Source of the DNA: a virus
Lineage: Duplodnaviria; Caudoviricetes
IMG/VR virus record: IMGVR_UViG_3300028638_000027
Location: 1-37,240 of that record
Strand: one strand, 5' to 3'
Length of the DNA stretch: 37,240 nt
The notes under the pieces were generated by a model. That model did not search any database and was not told where the DNA came from. It saw nothing but the letters and a program-made list of their open reading frames with translations. Shown in pieces: positions 15,764 through 36,882 of this stretch (position 1 is the first letter of the stretch; the number at the start of each line of letters is the position of its first letter). A program made the translations under genes and the position numbers.

Positions 15764-15790
15764 GGGGCCGGGTTTAACCGGCTCCTTTTT
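15764..15790 (+). terminator. Intrinsic terminator after capsid/decoration genes
   Basis: GGGGCCGG-GTTTAA-CCGGCTCC-TTTTT. Confidence 0.75.
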
Positions 15791-15807: not shown

Positions 15808-15969
15808 TTGTTTACAGCAAAAGGCGGTGTAAAAAAAGTCATCATTGAAGCCGTCGTCACTCGTTCTGACGGTACTGTCGAGGATCTCGGCAAGATCGCA
15901 GAGATCAAAAAACCGGTGGGCCTTATCGGCAAAATGAAGTCAGGCGCACTTAAAAAAGTAAAGGGGTGA
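15808..15969 (+). CDS. Small basic hypothetical protein (53 aa)
   Basis: Below the ORF-track cut-off: RBS AAAGGGTG, TTG start, MFTAKGGVKKVIIEAVVTRSDGTVEDLGKIAEIKKPVGLIGKMKSGALKKVKG. Confidence 0.7.
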   Translation: MFTAKGGVKKVIIEAVVTRSDGTVEDLGKIAEIKKPVGLIGKMKSGALKKVKG

Positions 15970-15975
15970 AAATAA

Positions 15976-16365
15976 ATGGCTGATACCGTCTATGTCGTGA
16001 ATAACGGCCTGGGACTTGTCACTGCAGCTCTCGCCGCATCCGCTCACAAATACGTGGCATGGGGGACAGGCGTCACCGCCGCCACCGTCACCGATACCAC
16101 GATGCAAACCGCGGCCGCACCAACCGCGACGACTGCTGAAACTGGCACTCAGACACAACAAACCACGACAACAACGAACGACACTTATCAAGTCGTGGCC
16201 ACCATCACGGCCGGTGGTACGCTTGCGATTACTGAGGTCGGGATCTTAAATCAGGCGACCCTATCCGGCGCGACGTTGTATCTGCGGGGGACTTTCTCTG
16301 CGATCAACGTCTCATCCGGCGACTCGATTCAGTTCACAATCAAGACCGTGTTCGATCAGGCGTAA
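15976..16365 (+). CDS. Small fibre/collar-like structural protein
   Basis: NNGLGLV...YVAWGTG...ITEVGIL...RGTFSAINVSSGDSIQFT resembles tail-collar/fibre N-terminal-type modules. Confidence 0.6.
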   Translation: MADTVYVVNNGLGLVTAALAASAHKYVAWGTGVTAATVTDTTMQTAAAPTATTAETGTQTQQTTTTTNDTYQVVATITAGGTLAITEVGILNQATLSGATLYLRGTFSAINVSSGDSIQFTIKTVFDQA

Positions 16366-16372
16366 AATGACG

Positions 16373-16399
16373 GGGCCGGCGGTATCCGGCCCTATTCTT
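16373..16399 (+). terminator. Hairpin (weak terminator or attenuator)
   Basis: GGGCCGG-CGGTAT-CCGGCCC followed by TATTCTT. Confidence 0.55.
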
Positions 16400-16420
16400 A
16401 AGCTACCCAGAGGTGATGAT

Positions 16421-16837
16421 ATGACGAAAAATGAAATCACTGCAGAGATCCTATCTAGTCCGCTCGTTCACAAATTAATCAACACCCGCCAAACCGGATT
16501 ACTGGCAGACGGGACCGCGATTTACTCAATTGAGTTTCTTGAGGTCCTTGAAAAGTCTGCGACACTACGCGCGGTCAGTATCTACGTTCTCGATGAAGGT
16601 CTTCCGTCTGAGGCGGCCTATTATAGGGACGTTGAGGCATCTCCTGCGATTCAGACCTTTAGTGACAAACTGAAACCGCTTCTTAAGCTGTATAACGCCA
16701 GTATTATCGAGAGCGGTAACACCTGGGCGCTCGCAGAGACGAACATCCTTATTGAAAATGCGGGAGTGTTCACCATAAAAAAAGACCAGTATTTCGTCGT
16801 GGATGGAGATCCGATCACCATCACTAAAATCGGCTAA
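16421..16837 (+). CDS. Hypothetical protein
   Basis: Start moved to ATG 16421 after GAGGTG; no family recognised. Confidence 0.65.
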   Translation: MTKNEITAEILSSPLVHKLINTRQTGLLADGTAIYSIEFLEVLEKSATLRAVSIYVLDEGLPSEAAYYRDVEASPAIQTFSDKLKPLLKLYNASIIESGNTWALAETNILIENAGVFTIKKDQYFVVDGDPITITKIG

Positions 16838-16855: not shown

Positions 16856-18112
16856 ATGGCGATAACCTATGGATCAGAGGCCGTTATCCAGTCCGCGGCA
16901 ACCTCGGACATTAAGGTCGCCATGCTCGATAGCACTCATGCCATCATCGTTTATGTAGACGAAGCAAGCGGACTAAACTTCGTTCGGGCCGTGATCGCGA
17001 CCATCGACGGGATGAATATATCCTACGGATCCGAGTACACAGTCAACGGGGCGTGGTCGATGTCGGTGGGACTTGGGGTCCTTGACAGTACTCACGCGGT
17101 CATCACCTATTACGATTCAGGTAATAGCGGGTATGGTACGTCGAGGACTGCGACGGTTAGTGGATCCGCGATTTCGTTTGGTACTGAGGCAACCTTCAAT
17201 GCCAACATTTCATATATTAATCAGGTCGCGGTCCTCGATAGCACGCACTTTGCAGTGGCTTTCAATGATTATAACGCGGCACAATATGGGGCTGCAGTCG
17301 TGGGCGTCGTCAGCGGCGGATCTACAATCACCTATGGTACCAAGGTCACTTTCAATACTAGTGCCACCACTGAAATATCTGCCAGCGGGCTTGATAGCAC
17401 GCACTTTGTCGTGTCCTATCAGGAGGCAGGAAGTTGGAACGGACGCAGCATCATTGGGGTCGTTAGTAACGACGACGAGATTGCTTTTGGGTCCTACGCT
17501 TCTTTTAACGCCGGTGGTACATCGTCAACGTCTACTGTGGCGCTTACGAGCACCAGTTTCCTTGTGTCATACCGGGACGGGTCGAACACCTATGGCCGGA
17601 CGACGATTGGCGTGGTCAGCAGTGGATCGACGATCACCCTCGGCTTAGAGTACACCTTTAACGCGGCGAATACGGCTTATACTGCAGCGACGGTGCTCGA
17701 TAGTACTCACGCGATCATCGCTTATGAGGATTCCGGTGGGTCCTACTATGGCCGGGCCACCATCGCCACCATCAGTAATGATGATGAGATCGCCTTCGGA
17801 ACCGAGGACGAATTCAACGCGGCCACGACGACATGGGTTTCAATCGCAGCACTGACATCGTCAAAGGTTATCATCGCCTATCGGGATGAGGGTAATACAA
17901 ACTTTGGGACCGCGATCATTGGGGCAACTGCATCCACCACAGGGAAATCCCTGACGGGAATGGTCGATCTCACCGGCGCGGCTCATCGTACCATAGGAAA
18001 AATCATAATGCCTTTAATTAACGCCACCGCATCGGTCCTTTATGCCTTACCGCCGCCGGTCCTCGATGCTATTAGTAAAGTAGGGGCTTGCCTCTACCTA
18101 ACCTGGACCTAA
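16856..18112 (+). CDS. Seven-repeat (beta-propeller-like) putative adhesin with short C-terminal stalk and FN3 fragment
   Basis: Seven ~51-aa repeats I(S/T/A)(Y/F)G...FN...LDSTH..I.Y.D.G...G; ends LPPPVLDAISKVGACLYLTWT. Confidence 0.75.
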   Translation: MAITYGSEAVIQSAATSDIKVAMLDSTHAIIVYVDEASGLNFVRAVIATIDGMNISYGSEYTVNGAWSMSVGLGVLDSTHAVITYYDSGNSGYGTSRTATVSGSAISFGTEATFNANISYINQVAVLDSTHFAVAFNDYNAAQYGAAVVGVVSGGSTITYGTKVTFNTSATTEISASGLDSTHFVVSYQEAGSWNGRSIIGVVSNDDEIAFGSYASFNAGGTSSTSTVALTSTSFLVSYRDGSNTYGRTTIGVVSSGSTITLGLEYTFNAANTAYTAATVLDSTHAIIAYEDSGGSYYGRATIATISNDDEIAFGTEDEFNAATTTWVSIAALTSSKVIIAYRDEGNTNFGTAIIGATASTTGKSLTGMVDLTGAAHRTIGKIIMPLINATASVLYALPPPVLDAISKVGACLYLTWT

Positions 18113-18124
18113 GGGGGGGCAAAA

Positions 18125-20722
18125 ATGGCATATCCAGTAATCGCAACTTATGCGATTGGAGCGTTAAACTCGAATGGAACCACTTCGACCATTGTTGTCC
18201 CCACTGGCACGACCTCAGGCGATTTGATGATTTTGTTTTTTACTAAGGATGGCACGGGCGCCATTACCACACCCACAAACTGGACTCAACTAGCACATAA
18301 TGCTTCTGGTGGTCAGGCTCACGGAATCTATTACCGCCAGTTAACGGCTACACTCAACAATTTTTCGGTTTCACATGCCAGTGAACAAACGACATGGATC
18401 ATTGTAAGAATTCCCAGTGGAGCTATTCCCGTCATCAATACGGTGGCCACCGGATCAAGTACCACACCAAACCCGACCTCACTTACTTCTGGATTTGATA
18501 CCGGTACTGAAACACTATATCTCGCCTCGGCAGGCTGGGACTATAATCGAAGCTGCAGCGGATTCCCGTCCAATATGTCCTTGTATCGATATTCGTCGGT
18601 GGGAACTTCAACTGGTGGATGCGGTACGGCTATTGCCGGGGCTGAATCGTCAGCGGCGTCTTTTGATCCTTCCAGTTTTACGATAGGAGCGACGGACACA
18701 TGGGCAGCGTATACCGTTGCGGTCAAAACAATTGCTTCTGGAACCGAAACCCAAAAATCGTTATCCTCAATTATTACTACTAACGTAACCGCGAGACGGC
18801 GAACGGATAAACTTGGGGCGGCGTCCGTAACAGCCACGGCAACGACCCGTAGGGCTGTTATTCGCACGATAAGTACGGCTGTGGACGCGGCCGGAGTCGC
18901 GCTCAAAGTCACCGCCCGGACCTTTTCCGGATACACCAGCTTGGCCAGGTCTCTACTTAAAAACTTCAATGGTTTTGTAGTAGAGCGAAAAGACGGGGAA
19001 GGGGAGTGGATTACACTTTCGAGTATTGGAGCAGGGTCGCATAACTATACGGACTGCTACAACCTCGAAAACGGTGTGACATACTATTACCGGGTCAAGA
19101 GAGTCAGTCTCATCCTCGGGGACTCAGGTTGGTCAAATATACAGTCTTACAGCTACACCGCGACCGAACCCATCGATAAGAGCCTCACTACGGGGCTCAC
19201 GATCACTTTTAAGGCCCGCCGTCAGTCGAAGAAGGACCTGACCGAAATCGTCGATGTTACCACGACGACCCGCAGATCCACTGAAGTCGTCAGGTCGATT
19301 GGTGTTGAAGCTGCCGGAACATTTCGTCGATCCATTACCCAGACTCTGAGCACTGTGGCAGAAGTAGCCGGTAATCTCATCAGGCAGACGGAGAATCGGC
19401 TGACAGGGACCTTGGGACTCTTCGCGACGGTGAACAGGCTAGGCGCGTTCCTCAAGACCCTTGCGGCTGAGGTCATTGCGGGCGGATCCGTTCGCAGAGC
19501 GATACGTAAACGACTTTCTAAATCCGCATCGATTTCAGTGATCATCTACCGCACCCGTAAAGTTCTGAAAACCTTGAGAGCGACGGTCAGCGCGACTGGA
19601 GAACTTATCAAACGGATGGCTAAGCGGCTGACTAGACCAGTGAAACTTGCCGCAATCGCTAACCGTATGAAAGTCTCACTCAAAACGCTCACCGCTCAGA
19701 TCCGCGTGAACGGGTCCATCAGGAGAGCGATCACCCGAGCCATAAGCGCGGCCCTTTCTACTGACGGAGCCGCTTGGAAATCAATCACCCGATACTTCGT
19801 CGTCGGTGTGGAGCTTGTCTTGACGGCCACTTGCAAGACCGGAAAAGCCTTCACAGTAGCTGCAAATGTGCTAGCAAACAAAACACATTCATCCGTGATA
19901 ATGCGCATCATCACCTCGGGCATCCAAGCTTCGACCACAGTGCGACGAGCTATCTTCAAGGCGACTACAACAGGGGCCAATGCGAATGCTTACGCGAGAC
20001 GGTTAGTCAGGAAATGGATCGATGCTACTCTTGACACCATCGCCACAATCCGTAGAACTATTGCCCTTGAGATTCAGTCGGATATAGACGTTATCGTATC
20101 TACATTCAGACACACCGCTATTGACATCGTCTCGGCACTTTCAGCAGCGACAACAGGCTTTGATGTTCATAAATTGGTCTCCATGATTTACTATAAGACC
20201 ATTTCGGCGACAACCGCTGTTACAGGTGCTGCGCGACGTTTGACGGCTCGGGGCCTATCCACTGCGGTTTCAATCTCCGGGGCACTATTCAAAGCGATTG
20301 CGAGTTCCTCTAAAAGAATCCGGTGGCTTTTAATGTCTCAGATGGACAGAGATTACGTGAACACCCAGAGCGAGCGCACCAGAGAATTATCAGGCGCAGG
20401 GCGGGTCTTAGTATTATCACTTTCAGATCAGGAAGGAGGGCCGCTGACCATGGCTTACACAGGGGACACTATCAGGTTATACGGCCGCTTTTACAACTGG
20501 GCAGGTGCTCTCTCCGACGTCGCCGGTGAGTCCATCAAGATTTACGACGGCAAGGGGACACAAATCGCCACAGGAACGCCGATAAAAGAATCGACCGGCG
20601 TCTATTATTATGAATACACCATTCCAGCGACCTACTCAGATCCACTCGTTTATGAAATGAGCGGCACTCTTGAAGGTTCCACAATTCTTGCTAGATCCAC
20701 CATCGAGCGGAGGTGGGTATAG
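18125..20722 (+). CDS. Large multidomain fibre-like protein: beta-rich N-domain, partial FN3, basic 18-20-aa repeats, C-terminal Ig-like domain
   Basis: PTGTTSGDLMI..PTNWT N-domain; GFVVERK...YTD...YYYRVK...SGWSN; RRxxxKxL repeats; C-terminal GDTIRL...STGVYYYEY. Confidence 0.7.
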   Translation: MAYPVIATYAIGALNSNGTTSTIVVPTGTTSGDLMILFFTKDGTGAITTPTNWTQLAHNASGGQAHGIYYRQLTATLNNFSVSHASEQTTWIIVRIPSGAIPVINTVATGSSTTPNPTSLTSGFDTGTETLYLASAGWDYNRSCSGFPSNMSLYRYSSVGTSTGGCGTAIAGAESSAASFDPSSFTIGATDTWAAYTVAVKTIASGTETQKSLSSIITTNVTARRRTDKLGAASVTATATTRRAVIRTISTAVDAAGVALKVTARTFSGYTSLARSLLKNFNGFVVERKDGEGEWITLSSIGAGSHNYTDCYNLENGVTYYYRVKRVSLILGDSGWSNIQSYSYTATEPIDKSLTTGLTITFKARRQSKKDLTEIVDVTTTTRRSTEVVRSIGVEAAGTFRRSITQTLSTVAEVAGNLIRQTENRLTGTLGLFATVNRLGAFLKTLAAEVIAGGSVRRAIRKRLSKSASISVIIYRTRKVLKTLRATVSATGELIKRMAKRLTRPVKLAAIANRMKVSLKTLTAQIRVNGSIRRAITRAISAALSTDGAAWKSITRYFVVGVELVLTATCKTGKAFTVAANVLANKTHSSVIMRIITSGIQASTTVRRAIFKATTTGANANAYARRLVRKWIDATLDTIATIRRTIALEIQSDIDVIVSTFRHTAIDIVSALSAATTGFDVHKLVSMIYYKTISATTAVTGAARRLTARGLSTAVSISGALFKAIASSSKRIRWLLMSQMDRDYVNTQSERTRELSGAGRVLVLSLSDQEGGPLTMAYTGDTIRLYGRFYNWAGALSDVAGESIKIYDGKGTQIATGTPIKESTGVYYYEYTIPATYSDPLVYEMSGTLEGSTILARSTIERRWV

Positions 20723-21300
20723 TGGACGGACGACTAAAAGTTATAACCCCGGTCAGCGGTGAGCCGATCAGCGTCGATGATGTGAAAGACCATCTCAGGA
20801 TCGACACCGCTGACGAGGATGACTATATCGCTGATCTCATCTTTGCTGCCAGGGAATATGCGGAGAAATATACCCGCCTCAGTCTTGCTACCCAGACGCT
20901 TGAACTCATGATGGATGCTTTTCGGGGGGAGGATTATTTCGAACTGCCGGGATCACCGGTCCAATCCGTGACGAGTATCAAATACACGGATGCATCTGGC
21001 ATCGAAACGGTCATGACCTCTGGCATAGATTATCTCACTGATCTCGACAGGCTACCGGCGCGAATCGTCAGGCCCTATGGCAAGTCGTGGCCGGTCGTCA
21101 CGCTTCACCCTGTCGCCCCGATCAGAATCAGGTACATCACCGGATATGATGGATCAACACTCAAGATTCCCTACAATCTTAAGGCGGGTATTCTGATTCA
21201 CGTTGGTCTACTTTACCAATACCGCGACGTGGAGATTCCAAGTGGTGCGGTGAACACCATCAAACGCCTTTACGACATGCACCGCGCTGTTTGGTTTTAG
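20722..21300 (+). CDS. Head-tail connector (gp6-like, long form)
   Basis: EPISVDDVKDHLRID...EDDYIADLIFAAREYAEKYT...IPYNLKAGILIHVGLLYQYR; GTG 20722 after GGAGGTG. Confidence 0.88.
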   Translation: MDGRLKVITPVSGEPISVDDVKDHLRIDTADEDDYIADLIFAAREYAEKYTRLSLATQTLELMMDAFRGEDYFELPGSPVQSVTSIKYTDASGIETVMTSGIDYLTDLDRLPARIVRPYGKSWPVVTLHPVAPIRIRYITGYDGSTLKIPYNLKAGILIHVGLLYQYRDVEIPSGAVNTIKRLYDMHRAVWF

Positions 21301-27582: not shown

Positions 27583-27963
27583 ATGCGAAAATCAAAAGAG
27601 ATCATCGGAACGAACGCTTCAAATTTCGCGCGTATCATATCAAGGAAACTGAACAGACAAATCGTCGATGAGGTCGACGGGGACCTTGTCGAGGCGGAGA
27701 TCAATCACGGGAGGTGGATCGTTCGCTGTCCATATTGCACCGGGGCGGAGATCGCCGACCGCGAGGATCCTGTCTTCCTATGTCTATCCTGTTTCAATGA
27801 GACGAACGGCGGAAAATTCCGACCGGTCCGTTTTCCGGCGGACGCGCTCAAGATCGAGAACACCCTCGGCAAGCGTAAAAAAGAAGAAAATCAGAACTGG
27901 GTCCCCGGCGAAACCGTCGTGGATCTCGAGAACGAAACTCGGGAAAAAGGGGGCGCTGAATAA
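27583..27963 (+). CDS. Four-Cys tail-associated protein
   Basis: NHGRWIVRCPYC...FLCLSC...QNWVPGET. Confidence 0.7.
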   Translation: MRKSKEIIGTNASNFARIISRKLNRQIVDEVDGDLVEAEINHGRWIVRCPYCTGAEIADREDPVFLCLSCFNETNGGKFRPVRFPADALKIENTLGKRKKEENQNWVPGETVVDLENETREKGGAE

Positions 27964-31843: not shown

Positions 31844-32449
31844 TCACAACGATCGCATCATTTGCACTAAATATGAAACATCAAAATTATCAAGTTCATC
31901 TCTATCAAGTTTTCTTTTATCAAATTGAATAAAGGCATTGCGTTTGTAAAAATCTATCAACCTAGGTTTATCTTCGCATTCAAGATAAACTATTTTACCA
32001 CCAACTTCATTTTGAATTGCGGTGATCTTTTCACATGCCATTTTCAAAAGTTCATCACCCGTTATCAAATCATTATAGCCGTTGTTAAAATTTTTGCCGA
32101 TCTGAGCAATCAATGGGGCGGCTAAAATATGGGCCTTCAATTCATTATTATAATGTGCAAATCTACTTATTCGCTTACGATAAGTCTTACTAAGTGATGC
32201 TCGAGTAAGATTTATCGTCTTATAACACAACGTAAAATATCCGATCAAGACCGGCTCTTGTTTATACGAAGAAAACACCAGATGTGTTCTGGATAAACTC
32301 TGTTTTGAAAATTCAATGGCTTTATTTTTAAGAAAGTATTCAACATCTTTATTATGTGGGCAGGAATATTCAAATATTATCGGTTTTACAAATTCTTCTC
32401 CCATTTCACTAATGAGATCCGCTAAGTTGACAATATTATATCCAGTCAT
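31844..32449 (-). CDS. GNAT acetyltransferase, TacT/AtaT-like putative toxin
   Basis: YSCPHNKDVEYFLKNKA, LIGYFTL, PLIAQIGKN, GGKIVYLEC...LIDFYKRNAF. Confidence 0.8.
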   Translation of the reverse strand: MTGYNIVNLADLISEMGEEFVKPIIFEYSCPHNKDVEYFLKNKAIEFSKQSLSRTHLVFSSYKQEPVLIGYFTLCYKTINLTRASLSKTYRKRISRFAHYNNELKAHILAAPLIAQIGKNFNNGYNDLITGDELLKMACEKITAIQNEVGGKIVYLECEDKPRLIDFYKRNAFIQFDKRKLDRDELDNFDVSYLVQMMRSL

Positions 32450-32622
32450 CTTTTCTTATCAAAAATAGATCTTATTTGGTCTTTTGAAATGGTATTACAT
32501 TGTTTTGAATAAACTACTTCTCTTGGTTTGATTTTCTCAGCGTACTCTAAAGCCAGAACAAATTGCTCTCCTGCTTTTTTATCTCGTATAACAATATCTT
32601 TCAATATGCTCTTTGTTGCCAT
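32446..32622 (-). CDS. 58-aa protein translationally coupled to the GNAT gene, putative antitoxin
   Basis: Below the ORF-track cut-off: RBS AAGGTG, MATKSILKDIVIRDKKAGEQFVLALEYAEKIKPREVVYSKQCNTISKDQIRSIFDKKR; ATGA overlap with the GNAT start. Confidence 0.8.
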   Translation of the reverse strand: MATKSILKDIVIRDKKAGEQFVLALEYAEKIKPREVVYSKQCNTISKDQIRSIFDKKR

Positions 32623-32739
32623 AGTTTACACCTTCTTTTTTCTAGACTAGAGAATTATATCTACTATCTCATTATATACCCGATGCAAGAAAATGCAATC
32701 CGCATCAAGATTTCTAAATATTAAAATATGGATTCATTT

Positions 32740-32780
32740 AATTAAGTTTAACAGACTTCCAATTAAGTTTAACAGACTTC
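32740..32780 (+). repeat. Perfect 20-bp tandem duplication
   Basis: AATTAAGTTTAACAGACTTC at 32740-32759 and 32761-32780. Confidence 0.9.
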
Positions 32781-32978
32781 ACTAAAAATTCAAGTCGTTT
32801 GTTACTTCAACAATCTTCATAATCATAATGAAACACGTTCAATTAAAAGGCAAACGATTTGGTTCTAATAGCTATCTTCATAAACGAACAAACCGTTGTA
32901 TCTCTTGATATTAGCCGATTTCAGAGCTAACATGAACATGAAACAATAAGTAACCATATTTTGAAAGGGGAAAGGGAT

Positions 32979-33848
32979 ATGCTATTCATTGAAGCACTGG
33001 ACCTGCTGGTCGATTATATGAACAGTATCGATAGAAGTCAAAGAACCATCATTCTTTATCGCCGGGATCTTCTACTCGTCAAAAAATTCTTAGAAGAAAA
33101 ATATAACGGACCGGTTTATATTGAGGATGTCACTCAAAACGATTTAGAGGCATTCATGCTCTATACTAAAGAAGTCAAAAATTATTCGCCAAATTCCAGA
33201 AGCAATTTGTTTTATGCACTAAGAACGTTTTATGCCTTTTGCTACAAAAAAGAGATAGTCACACTAGATATTGCGGTGACCATGGAATTCATGAAAATGC
33301 CAAAGACAGAACGATTCTACCTTACTGAAGAAGAAGCTGATATGGTCATTGCAGCTATTTCGAACAAACTCATCAATCTCGTCGCAACATTTTTATTTAA
33401 CACAGGACTTCGAATTTCTGAATGTCTTAATCTCAAAATGGATGATGTCGATTTCGAAAAACGAACCATCCACGTTAGAGAAGGCAAAGGGAGAAAGGAT
33501 CGGATCGTACCGATCAACAATAAACTGCATAGTTTACTACTAGATTATCGTGACAATTGGAGAGAAGGTCAAAATTCAGATTTCTTCTTTTCAACAAAGA
33601 AAACCGGTGCAGTATCTTACCCTCACGTTAATTCGACCATTGGAAAAGCTGCCAAATCAGTCGGCATAAAAAAACCTGTTTCTTGCCATATTTTAAGGCA
33701 TTCATTTGCATCTGCTTTAGTAAAGAAAAACGTCAACTTAGTGCACATCCAAAAACTTCTCGGTCACGAAAGCCTGGCGGTAACTTCAATTTATACGCAT
33801 ACGAATCTTGAAGCGCTTTCTGAAGCTGTGAATGTTTTAAATGACTAA
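32979..33848 (+). CDS. XerC/D-like tyrosine recombinase
   Basis: SAM-like N-domain; catalytic R (TGLRISE), K (GKGRKDR), HILRH, LGH, Y (IYTH) all present; ATG 32979 after AAAGGGG. Confidence 0.95.
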   Translation: MLFIEALDLLVDYMNSIDRSQRTIILYRRDLLLVKKFLEEKYNGPVYIEDVTQNDLEAFMLYTKEVKNYSPNSRSNLFYALRTFYAFCYKKEIVTLDIAVTMEFMKMPKTERFYLTEEEADMVIAAISNKLINLVATFLFNTGLRISECLNLKMDDVDFEKRTIHVREGKGRKDRIVPINNKLHSLLLDYRDNWREGQNSDFFFSTKKTGAVSYPHVNSTIGKAAKSVGIKKPVSCHILRHSFASALVKKNVNLVHIQKLLGHESLAVTSIYTHTNLEALSEAVNVLND

Positions 33849-33869
33849 CAGTGAAAGGAGTATGTATTT

Positions 33870-34634
33870 ATGGCATTACTTGATTGCAGGGAACCAGTAT
33901 TTGATAGACAGGTCAATCAAATACTACAACTACTTGAAGAAGGTATCGATCGCGCCGAGATTGCTGAAAAGTTAGGATACAGCAATCCAATGTCGCTCGA
34001 CAATTATATGAGAAGACGAAATTTCTCATGGGACTCAAGACAAAAGAACTTCGTCCCGGCTGCAGAGCGATATTCTGGAAAGGGTCAAGATAACTTGCTT
34101 CAGCTTCATGGCACATCAAAAGCGGCATTGATCATATCGCTTTTTGATCAGGGTGAATCTGATCCCAAGGACATCGCAAGACAAGCGGGCATTGATTCAT
34201 ATAAGGAAATGGCTAATTATATGAAGAAAAAAGGATATGAATGGGATGTAGCTAAAGGCAATTACGTCAAAATGAGTAAAGATAAACTTCAGGCCAATCA
34301 AACCGATGGCAACTTAGCTCAACTTTCATCCAACGCAGCAGTCGCTGAAGCACTTCAAAATATCATCCCATTTCTTAAGAACATTCAAAACATGGAAAGA
34401 CCGCAAGTACAATCACAGGTGAATATTGAAGAAGCGCAGAACATTCCAAGATATAAGGTAAAAGGGCAGTACACTACAAAGGGAATGCGCATGGCTATTG
34501 CAATTGATGAGTTAACACGTCGATATAGCCTTGAAAGAAACATCAGCCAACGCGAGATCCTTGAAGTAGCCTTGATTGAATTTTTCAAAAGGTATGGGTA
34601 TCGAGATGAAATTGAAAACTATTTGAACGATTAA
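33870..34634 (+). CDS. Recombinase-associated DNA-binding protein: two tandem HTH-like repeats plus C-terminal RHH-like domain
   Basis: EIAEKLGYSNPMSLDNYMRRRNFSWDSRQKNFV and DIARQAGIDSYKEMANYMKKKGYEWDVAKGNYV; TTKGMRM...NISQREILEVALIEFF. Confidence 0.7.
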   Translation: MALLDCREPVFDRQVNQILQLLEEGIDRAEIAEKLGYSNPMSLDNYMRRRNFSWDSRQKNFVPAAERYSGKGQDNLLQLHGTSKAALIISLFDQGESDPKDIARQAGIDSYKEMANYMKKKGYEWDVAKGNYVKMSKDKLQANQTDGNLAQLSSNAAVAEALQNIIPFLKNIQNMERPQVQSQVNIEEAQNIPRYKVKGQYTTKGMRMAIAIDELTRRYSLERNISQREILEVALIEFFKRYGYRDEIENYLND

Positions 34635-34666
34635 TGGACGCCATTCATTAAGGTGTCCAATTTTTT
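34635..34666 (+). terminator. Terminator after the recombinase operon
   Basis: TGGACGCC...GGTGTCCA then ATTTTTT. Confidence 0.6.
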
Positions 34667-34894
34667 GGACCCATCTCAAAAATATGTGATTTCACTTCAG
34701 TTGTCTGACTTATCGTTAGCTCAAATTTGACTATATAATAATGATGGAAAACCACAGACTATTTTATTTAGTGATATTTTTCTACGAAATTTGACTTTTG
34801 CAGTTTCATATGATTTTTCAAAATTTATTTAAAAATATTCTGAATATTATTCTCAAAAAGTGGTATCAATGAAAAAAGAATATTTTATTTGAGA

Positions 34895-34972
34895 GAAGAG
34901 GAAGTGATGAAGCACAGTCTGTATCTGGACACCTGGACTGTGTGGAGCTAATGGTGTAACCGGCCTCCTTTT
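34895..34972 (+). ncRNA. c-di-GMP-II riboswitch aptamer
   Basis: GAGG-AAGTGATGAAG-CACAGTC-TGTATCTGGACACCTG-GACTGTG-TGGAGCTAAT-GGTGT-AACCGG-CCTC: P1 GAGG/CCTC, stem CACAGTC/GACTGTG, pseudoknot ACACC/GGTGT (covarying with the usual GCACY/RGTGC), conserved AACCG. Confidence 0.88.
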
Positions 34973-35226
34973 ATTTGTTTGAATGGGGAGTAAATTAAGC
35001 ATATTTATCATCTTAAAATTGTGGTGTGATGATAAGTTGTATTGATGGAAATGATTTTAATTTACTTTTCTATTTTTGAACCAACAGTATATTTTGTAAA
35101 TTGAAATATTTTGATGAAAAATCATAATTAGAATTAGAAGTGAATTAGTGATCATTGTCATTTCGATTATCACATAATCATAACGTTGTGATAGATAGAA
35201 CAACCATAATACCCTCCTTGATTTGG

Positions 35227-35272
35227 AAACAAAAAACCCGCGTATCCTTTGGAAATGGCGGGTTTTTTGTTT
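35227..35272. terminator. Bidirectional intrinsic terminator
   Basis: Perfect 15-bp inverted repeat AAACAAAAAACCCGC / GCGGGTTTTTTGTTT. Confidence 0.85.
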
Positions 35273-35313
35273 ATCTAAATTTACTTATTATTACTTATTT
35301 TACAATAATTTAC

Positions 35314-35625
35314 GGCTTCACGTTGATTGAACTGATTGTGGTTATTGCGATTCTTGCGATTTTGGTGTTAATTGCTGTTCCTAGGTTAAGCGGCTTCTCT
35401 GCTGCAGCACGTGAGAAAGCAGATTATGCAACGGCTGCAACTATTGGTCATGCAGCACAAGCTTGGGTTGCAATGGATGAAGAAAACAATACTGCAACAA
35501 CAGTTGATGACCTTGAAACAGCTAAGTTGCTAAATGAAGGTACAAAACCTCCTCAGAGCACAGATGGAGCATGGGAAATTACAATTACTGATGGTGTCCC
35601 TCGCAATAAATCAATTTTTGAATAA
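35314..35625 (+). pseudogene. Type IV pilin gene lacking start codon and prepilin leader (5'-truncated at G|FTLIE)
   Basis: GFTLIELIVVIAILAILVLIAVPRL is a clean class III signal N-terminus, but upstream is AT-rich sequence with no RBS/ATG and no basic leader. Confidence 0.85.
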
Positions 35626-35782
35626 TTAACTGAAGATACAAATTCGAAATGTTATATAGTGCTATAGTATCTATTATATGGTAGATTATATCTAAAAAAA
35701 TATTCTCAATATGTTCTTATTTAAGCATTAAATGGGAATGGAAGAGGTCAATGAAGAAATAGCTTGATGTAATTATTTTACA

Positions 35783-36882
35783 TTAAGCTATTTTTCTATA
35801 GATATGATATAACCCACCAAGTATAGGCTCACTAATCAACACCGTATCTTTGAGTAAAGTCTTAGGATAATCCGGCGAAGGTATTGGAGTATTGCCGTTC
35901 AATCCCTGATGGGTTCTATGAGGATTGTAGTATTTTTGAATATATTCGGTTAGAAGTTTTTCAAGATGGTTTTCATTAATTGGTATAATGTGATCGAGCA
36001 GATCTCGACGAATTGTACCAATCACACGTTCTGCATAAGGATTTTGCCAAGGAGATTTAATCGAAGTTTTTACCGACTTTATTGACGAAACTTTTAAAAA
36101 TTCCTGAAATTCTTTTGAGGTGAAAGTAGAATCATTATCATGAAATAAATACTTTGGACAATCTCCATATGGTGTAGCATTTCTAAGTTGCTGAATGACC
36201 CAAGCTGAATTTGGATTTTTAGTAATAGCAGTATGCTTAATTTGACGTGAACCATGTTCTATCATTACGAACACGTACAATCGTTGAAAAGTCAGTGTTG
36301 TTACAACGAAAAAATCCATCCCACAGGAAACTGAGGCTGTGGCATAATTTCTTAGAAAAATTAAGAAGTTTATGCGTTGCTGTTCAGTTGGCGATTTTCT
36401 AATTATTGACATATATTTTCTAATGGTATTGGGCGAGGGTAGATCTGCAATTCCTAATATTCTTATCTTTTCATATATTTTTTCAGGAGATAACAAAGGA
36501 TTGTCTTCGTTAAACTGTTTTATTAATGCAATCATCTCAGCTGAAATTCTGGGTCTACCTCTTTTTCTTGATTTTTGTGCCCATAATTTTTTAGCTGCTG
36601 CTTCGTGCCATCTGATTACCGTCAAGCGTTTATAAACTTTCATATCAGATTCCCAATAATCATACTTTCTAAAAAGTCTCACCCATAATTGTTGAAATGC
36701 TATTGTTGATTTTGGTTTTTTTTTTTATGATTAAGAACTTGCTGATCATACAGTGCCAGTTGACTCATAAGTGCAAGATTTTGTTGTCTTAAATGTTTAC
36801 ACGTCTTAAAATACGATATGATATAAAAGTATATATAGCGTGACCATTCCCAACAATAATCAATTTTTTCTCTCAGTCTCAT
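35783..36882 (-). mobile_element. rve/integrase-core DDE transposase split by a frameshift in an A11 tract
   Basis: QNLALMSQL (ORF 36700-36882) joins TVIRWH, GRPRI, MDFFVV, LFHDNDSTF, SPWQNPYAERVIGTIRR, YYNPHRTHQGL, PILGGLYHIY (ORF 35783-36682); T11 at 36716-36726. Confidence 0.85.

Follow-up and report, generated by a model that had tools for sequence, protein, structure and literature searches.

In the 37 kb window analysed here, which is the complete virus record IMGVR_UViG_3300028638_000027 (37,240 nucleotides, nt), one fibronectin type III (FN3) domain is divided between two neighbouring genes of a fibre cassette. Gene A (16856-18112), encoding 418 amino acids (aa), ends with FN3 strands A-B (the "tag"), and gene B (18125-20722), encoding 865 aa, carries strands C-G (the "catcher") within a long repetitive segment referred to as the rope. 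The two pieces probably rebuild a single domain, a Y-joint that would hang the 418-aa protein on the 865-aa rope of a rope-and-bead virion fibre. We lean, if only slightly, towards a joint that is both functional and locked by a disulfide. The chances are likewise put a little above even that such a natural disulfide-locked tag/catcher pair is the standard branching connector in phage single-chain rope fibres, with a 21-residue C-terminal tag that takes any head, heads of the arms that swap independently, and arms whose length changes in whole 18-residue repeats.

Two complementary pieces of one FN3 domain

An FN3 profile was built from 2646 intact FN3 domains, and each half was aligned to it separately. 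The gene A protein terminates with LPPPVLDAISKVGACLYLTWT (18047-18109), followed by the stop codon TAA (18110-18112). This tail (18047-18112 with its stop codon) spans profile positions 10-28, ends one residue past the strand-B Trp and contains Cys412 (codon 18089-18091), the sole Cys of the protein. The gene B piece, NFNGF...YSYT (18962-19159), spans positions 33-93 with an E-value of 5e-16, shows the Tyr/Leu pattern of the family, contains Cys311 in strand E (codon 19055-19057) and has FN3con as its best PDB sequence match (E 0.012). In the same chain its strand C follows directly on rope repeats, with neither A-B strands nor a strand-B Trp before it; the cut falls in the B-C loop. The initial annotation had described a propeller protein ending right after strands A-B and a following protein with strands C-G and no A-B strands before them, and the profile positions bear out both descriptions.

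Taken alone, the A-B tail is a weak match to the intact-FN3 profile (E 0.05), and it was therefore scored over the A and B columns against 1113 distinct open reading frame (ORF) ends from the fetched related loci, which carry labels such as L001 and L012 (related proteins are labelled P0299, P0300 and P0303). The tail from the window ranks second, and those of four relatives rank 1, 4, 12 and 16.

The gene split is not an assembly artefact, because a 31,298 base pair (bp) contig of a separate study, covering this whole stretch, encodes proteins 97% and 94% identical to those of the window, with the same ends and with both Cys retained. In two further studies, too, a single contig runs across the gene junction free of indels, the stop codon itself being checked only in the 31,298-bp contig. 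Since the two ORFs of the window are in frame and 12 nt apart, stop read-through, splicing or DNA excision might be thought to restore the domain within one chain. This is scarcely credible: the ORFs are in frame in only one of five loci, read-through would still leave ~280 residues between strands B and C, and the insert encodes a head that is conserved between L001 and L023. Furthermore, there was no Rfam match at E<=0.1, no repeats were found at either break point, and no contig joint across the insert was seen, contigs being able to show the presence of such a joint and not its absence.

When the two FN3 halves were modelled as a complex, which would be a seven-strand sandwich, they scored 0.63, compared with 0.02 for the best of three controls with unrelated peptides. 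Of 157 solved complexes 116 attain the mark that they pass, as do 2 of 215 mismatched pairs; these counts apply approximately here, our own alignments having been used. Contact agreement between runs was at least 93%, and the predicted local distance difference test (pLDDT) of the partner at least 69. In the model strands B and E are antiparallel, A-G contacts are also formed, and Cys311 faces Cys412 with an expected error of 1.0 Å. Strands A and C of an FN3 domain enter at one pole and strand G exits at the opposite pole; given this topology, with which the modelled A-G and B-E contacts agree, the rebuilt domain would be a Y-junction. The predicted direct contact of the two Cys favours the earlier proposal of a cross-strand pair, and completion of the domain in trans, suggested at the same time, is consistent with the model score and with the selection on both halves described below.

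The two Cys map to profile columns 22 and 64. Among 2605 near-complete intact FN3 domains, a Cys stands at column 22 in one, at column 64 in none and at both columns in none. The pair is present in the window, L012, L001 and L023; L013 is without either Cys, yet keeps the split, and the disulfide is therefore optional. Predicted to lie side by side, Cys412 and Cys311 may form an inter-chain disulfide once oxidised, which would serve as an optional lock. A rationale for a disulfide at the seam comes from an engineered split FN3, which reassembles and melts near 45 °C versus 78 °C, ~33 °C lower, according to the accessible part of the report (PMC11666773). A second Cys pair, between strands F and G, is found in L001, L023 and L013 and in neither the window nor L012. 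Both of its residues also occur together in 39 intact domains, and the pair probably forms an ordinary bond within one chain.

Conservation of the split and selection on both halves

Single-sequence scans of viral contigs with the whole gene A or gene B protein gave no match, and relatives were reached through a 160-aa neighbour gene, the 90-aa C-terminal domain of gene B (the likely anchor) and the 129-aa bead protein of the cassette. The initial annotation had asked whether homologues keep the split and both Cys, or are intact while the halves decay. Among the seven relatives with the complete cassette visible, four (L001, L023, L012 and L013) are split at the same cut, with the stop one residue past the Trp, three (L014, L015 and L016) have one rope protein each and no FN3, and none is intact. 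The expectation of a conserved split thus stands in these four, and that of a conserved Cys pair stands in three of them and fails in L013; decay of the halves is contradicted by the purifying selection reported below. Among all 16 anchor-bearing rope proteins, several of which are near-copies, an FN3 match is present in eight, setting in at profile position 32-35, and is lacking in the other eight. Three lineages underlie the split forms, with 28-42% identity between their C-G halves.

No further FN3 was found across loci L001-L101. An extra FN3 match in the Gly-rich head of P0303 is weak (E 0.008) and was taken as chance. A prophage of Acidaminobacter hydrogenoformans DSM 2784 (L098) has the same cassette as L012, and the anchor is present in one of 401 genomes of the order of this host. 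Among 50,697 cultured phage records, nothing matched the catcher or the bead. A C-G profile search of 1.84 billion proteins returned 29,911 matches; the best of those listed are multi-domain repeat proteins, and this search, dominated by such proteins, was used only as an intact-domain background. Support in the anchor tree is weak, with 2 of its 13 branches starred; split and FN3-less ropes fall on both sides of its best branch, and no order of events was derived from it.

Selection was estimated by the ratio of the proportions of nonsynonymous and synonymous differences (pN/pS) for two pairs independent of each other, window/L012 and L001/L023, both close to saturation at synonymous sites. 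The A-B tail has ratios of 0.11 and 0.13, and the C-G half ratios of 0.25 and 0.22, compared with 0.54-0.83 for the rope segments flanking the FN3 pieces and 0.12-0.27 for bead and anchor, which served as positive references. Identity within the two pairs is 95% and 86% over the 21-residue tail, and falls to 37% and 53% in the adjoining rope. Both FN3 halves are under purifying selection, which therefore disfavours the reading in which an insertion of ~850 bp broke one ancestral gene and left the halves as functionless leftovers. The position of the insert in the B-C loop, an order of pieces that fits an insertion origin, the shared frame of the window ORFs and the lack of FN3 in half of the related ropes all lend something to such a relic. 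It is nevertheless very improbable, being largely refuted by the better conservation of both halves than of their surroundings in two independent pairs; moreover, the cut outlives the replacement of both heads, and the Cys pair is a feature of split domains and not of intact ones. An insertion may explain the origin of the arrangement, not its upkeep. For a joint formed by the two pieces, a likely origin would be the insertion of a stop, a ribosome site, a head and a rope into the B-C loop, retained because the tips were doubled.

Sequence comparison indicates that the heads on either side of the joint are exchanged for unrelated domains. The gene A head (16856-17944) shows approximately seven 50-residue repeats, has 425 homologues without a common Pfam name and is read as a predicted beta-propeller; other gene A heads are a DUF2341 plus LamG domain (L012) and a different propeller-like family (L001, L023 and L013). 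A tail like that of the window was seen by eye in none of the other 119 among 120 listed propeller homologues, which means that the tag does not characterise that head family. The gene B head (18125-18754, ~205 aa), a common unnamed viral domain, shares 56% identity with its counterpart in L013. For gene A and for gene B alike, three mutually unrelated heads are seen, combined in four different ways; surfaces or glycans are their presumed targets.

Between heads and FN3 pieces lie rope arms, which in the window comprise 34 aa or ~2 repeats in gene A (17945-18046) and 69 aa or ~4 repeats in gene B (18755-18961). The rope residues before the A-B and C-G pieces number 34/69 in the window and L012, 150/51 in L001 and L023, and 0/17 in L013, and the arm lengths before strand C (69, 51 and 17 residues) preserve the rope register. 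In a variant contig from another study, 54 extra bases in the gene A arm (17958-18039) correspond to exactly one 18-residue repeat, with a tag that is changed and recognisable.

The split-FN3 device may also be present in unrelated rope families. At L109 (236-442), strands C-G without Cys follow a rope repeat without a strand-B Trp, in an unrelated rope family of period 20. The rope gene sits upstream of a portal-like gene; L109 is a lead only, because the gene 5' of the rope lies off the contig. The profile alignment at L109 continues over the preceding rope repeat, without the Trp, and this, together with the fact that rope strands are free beta-strands, speaks for separate partners: the C-G piece would take its missing strands from the rope, the bead or a further protein, with the A-B tail binding elsewhere. 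Selection, too, leaves room for such an arrangement, as it does not identify the partner. We nonetheless judge separate partners unlikely, since the FN3 pieces are exactly complementary, the halves are co-present in four of seven relatives and co-absent in the other three, the Cys residues vary together, and unrelated peptides score only 0.02 in the complex model.

Several observations weigh against the joint formed by the two halves. That each half is under purifying selection is no proof that the two bind each other, and the pass in the complex model may stem from likeness to solved FN3 structures, the halves of split genes tending to pass; what the model gives is therefore the register and the feasibility of the fit, not proof of binding. 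The independent lineages of the split are only three, and the A-B tails of L001 and L023, taken alone, score poorly on the intact-FN3 profile. As for the lock, paired loss of the Cys is seen at a single locus (L013), and the Cys-less catchers P0299 and P0300 have no visible partner gene. The nearest named host, A. hydrogenoformans, is an anaerobe, which makes oxidation of the Cys pair uncertain. Finally, the match of the bead model to phage GP4 is modest on its own (gp80, 8jou_a, Z 6.3; sequence E 0.096).

Rope, bead protein and probable anchor in the fibre cassette

The modules of the window (HK97-type head, adaptor, lambda-like tail tube, tape measure and lysin) point to a siphophage-type genome, in which the fibre cassette has the capsid gene on one side and the head-tail adaptor gene on the other. 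All its genes lie on the plus strand, in the order 53-aa ORF, 129-aa protein, 156-aa protein, gene A and gene B.

By sequence and predicted structure, the 129-aa protein (15976-16365) groups with the beads of rope-and-bead fibres, having the GP4 gp80/phage 812 arm-segment fold. In its family, 56 of 62 members match PF23140 at E<=0.05 (best 1e-9), the window copy reaching E 0.021, under the Pfam curated cut-off. The bead model (pLDDT 84.8) is similar to the arm segment of phage 812 (9euf_b; Z 10.7, root-mean-square deviation 3.0 Å over 119 residues) and to 9c39_K (Z 9.0), and Foldseek gave no match for it at E<=0.001. A first bead model, built from three sequences, was dropped (pLDDT 46). The rope stem (19160-20355, ~400 aa, ~21 repeats) is basic and has almost no Pro. 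Rope autocorrelation in the window peaks at lag 18 (z 7.8), with periods of 36 and 38 as well, and the period of 18 recurs in all five loci (z 6.4-7.8). By analogy with the known fibres of this type, dimers of the 129-aa protein would coat the rope. The order bead gene, then rope gene, with heads that vary, is common among viral contigs (L012-L091; 199 matching stretches, of which 80 were retained).

The Ig-like C-terminal domain of gene B (90 aa, 20450-20722) has its own AGGAGG and ATG, and a purine-rich stretch precedes the ATG in eight of eight loci. It matches phrog_18294 (E 1e-7), and its atlas neighbours are free 91-aa viral proteins. In the window the domain is fused to the rope (20425-20722); in L099 (7090-7372) and L109 (2160-2453) it is a separate gene directly after the rope stop. 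Fused and free forms may both be made from one gene. The domain would anchor the rope to the virion, probably at the neck, because it is elsewhere a free viral Ig-like protein and overlaps the gene of the head-tail adaptor (20713-21300; TIGR02215, 92 bits, cut-off 39), which overlaps the end of gene B and is a candidate attachment site. The neck fibres of A-1(L) were considered as a model and dropped, as their beads are trimeric in the accessible text of the report (PMC10966104).

In the proposed fibre, the rope would thus be held by its C-terminal domain, probably at the neck. The stem of ~21 repeats would measure roughly 55-60 nm if the spacing of phage A1002 applies, and two bead-coated arms, of ~2 and ~4 repeats and with different heads, would converge on it.

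The 53-aa ORF (15808-15969) lies directly 5' of the bead gene, and L001 has similar DNA at the equivalent place. It is possibly a fibre accessory, and it is conceivable, by analogy, that it is a split-off leader, given that ~30 N-terminal residues of A1002 gp41 are reported absent in the virion in the available portion of PMC13730344. The slot after the bead gene, occupied in the window by a 156-aa (or 138-aa) protein with no family above cut-off (16367-16837), differs among relatives, some of which carry other genes and some none; examples are a CBM5/12 protein in L013 (7445-8026) and a 140-aa protein in the FN3-less relatives (L014, 4182-4604). A terminator-like hairpin (15764-15785) is located 3' of the 160-aa gene and just 5' of the cassette, with a similar one at the equivalent place in L001; a promoter/terminator scan of the sequence gave no signal above chance level, and no RNA sample was among the listed holders of the sequence. 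In the tail region, a 126-aa protein between tail-tip genes (27583-27963) has two CxxC motifs and no family match. The right end (31844-36682), with low guanine-cytosine content, contains acetyltransferase-like and tyrosine-recombinase-like genes and pilin-like and integrase-core ORFs, named from sequence reading.

Comparison with known strand-completion systems and fibres

The subunits of pilus donor-strand polymers each carry a donor strand as well as an acceptor groove. The SpyTag/SpyCatcher pair, derived from CnaB2, has the CnaB fold and a covalent Lys-Asp isopeptide bond, with a catalytic Glu. As in these two systems, the missing strands would here come from another chain. However, gene A has only strands A-B and gene B only strands C-G, with one copy of each in the window, so that one joint would be formed rather than a polymer; and, unlike in SpyTag/SpyCatcher, the present fold is that of FN3, with a disulfide instead of an isopeptide as predicted lock. 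Engineered split monobodies also reassemble FN3 from two fragments; according to the accessible part of PMC11666773 they are artificial, cut in the C-D loop and non-covalent, whereas the present pair is natural, cut in the B-C loop and has a predicted disulfide.

A comparable case within a virion is Lactococcus phage Tuc2009, in which the C-terminal beta-hairpin of BppU completes the beta-sandwich of BppA domain 2 and thereby docks an accessory carbohydrate-binding protein (PMC4742702, accessible text). The likeness is that one chain completes the beta-sandwich of another, which here is predicted only. The direction differs, as in Tuc2009 the scaffold donates the hairpin, whereas here strands A-B would come from the accessory protein and complete an FN3 within the rope. 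The Tuc2009 composite is titin-like and sits on a trimeric baseplate tripod, with no disulfide mentioned in the available part of that report (PMC4742702); here arms from both chains and a Cys pair are found. BppU, BppA and BppL are proteins of the baseplate tripod, and the window genes, lying in a head-neck module, are not members of that system.

The fibres of GP4, VP1 and A1002 combine a gp80-like bead with an extended rope that binds bead dimers by beta-sheet augmentation, as described in the accessible text of PMC13730344. In the baseplate arm of Staphylococcus phage 812, scaffold gp117 and arm segment gp118 are likewise assembled by sheet augmentation, with linkers between dimers, and inserted domains dock receptor-binding proteins (PMC13433997, in the part available). 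The bead protein and the periodic beta-strand rope that GP4, A1002 and 812 share are both found here. The A1002 rope has ~20 residues per dimer (226 residues / 11, our own division of figures in the available text of PMC13730344), compared with the period of 18 in the window, and in A1002 the nozzle, too, is a structure that two proteins complete together (same source and extent). The GP4, VP1 and A1002 fibres are single chains on podophage tails in that same text (PMC13730344), whereas here a fork is predicted in a siphophage-type genome. The phage 812 arm, the best fold match of the bead, belongs to a myophage baseplate, where docking to trimers is by loops and antenna domains (PMC13433997, in the accessible part). 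No fork in fibres of the GP4/A1002/812 type is described in the available parts of PMC13730344 and PMC13433997. Neither a natural split FN3 in a phage fibre nor a conserved split-FN3 fork with a split-specific Cys pair was found in open-access and bioRxiv full text, a scope outside which supplements and most subscription papers lie.

If true, the proposed joint would explain how a fibre made of one polypeptide rope with a single free end bears two different tips, and how phages reshuffle their fibre tips. It would also give protein engineers a compact tag/catcher pair of natural origin (21 + 66 residues), and it carries a warning for annotation, as a half domain at a gene end is not necessarily a pseudogene. 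Strand completion between virion proteins is already known from Tuc2009 and A1002.

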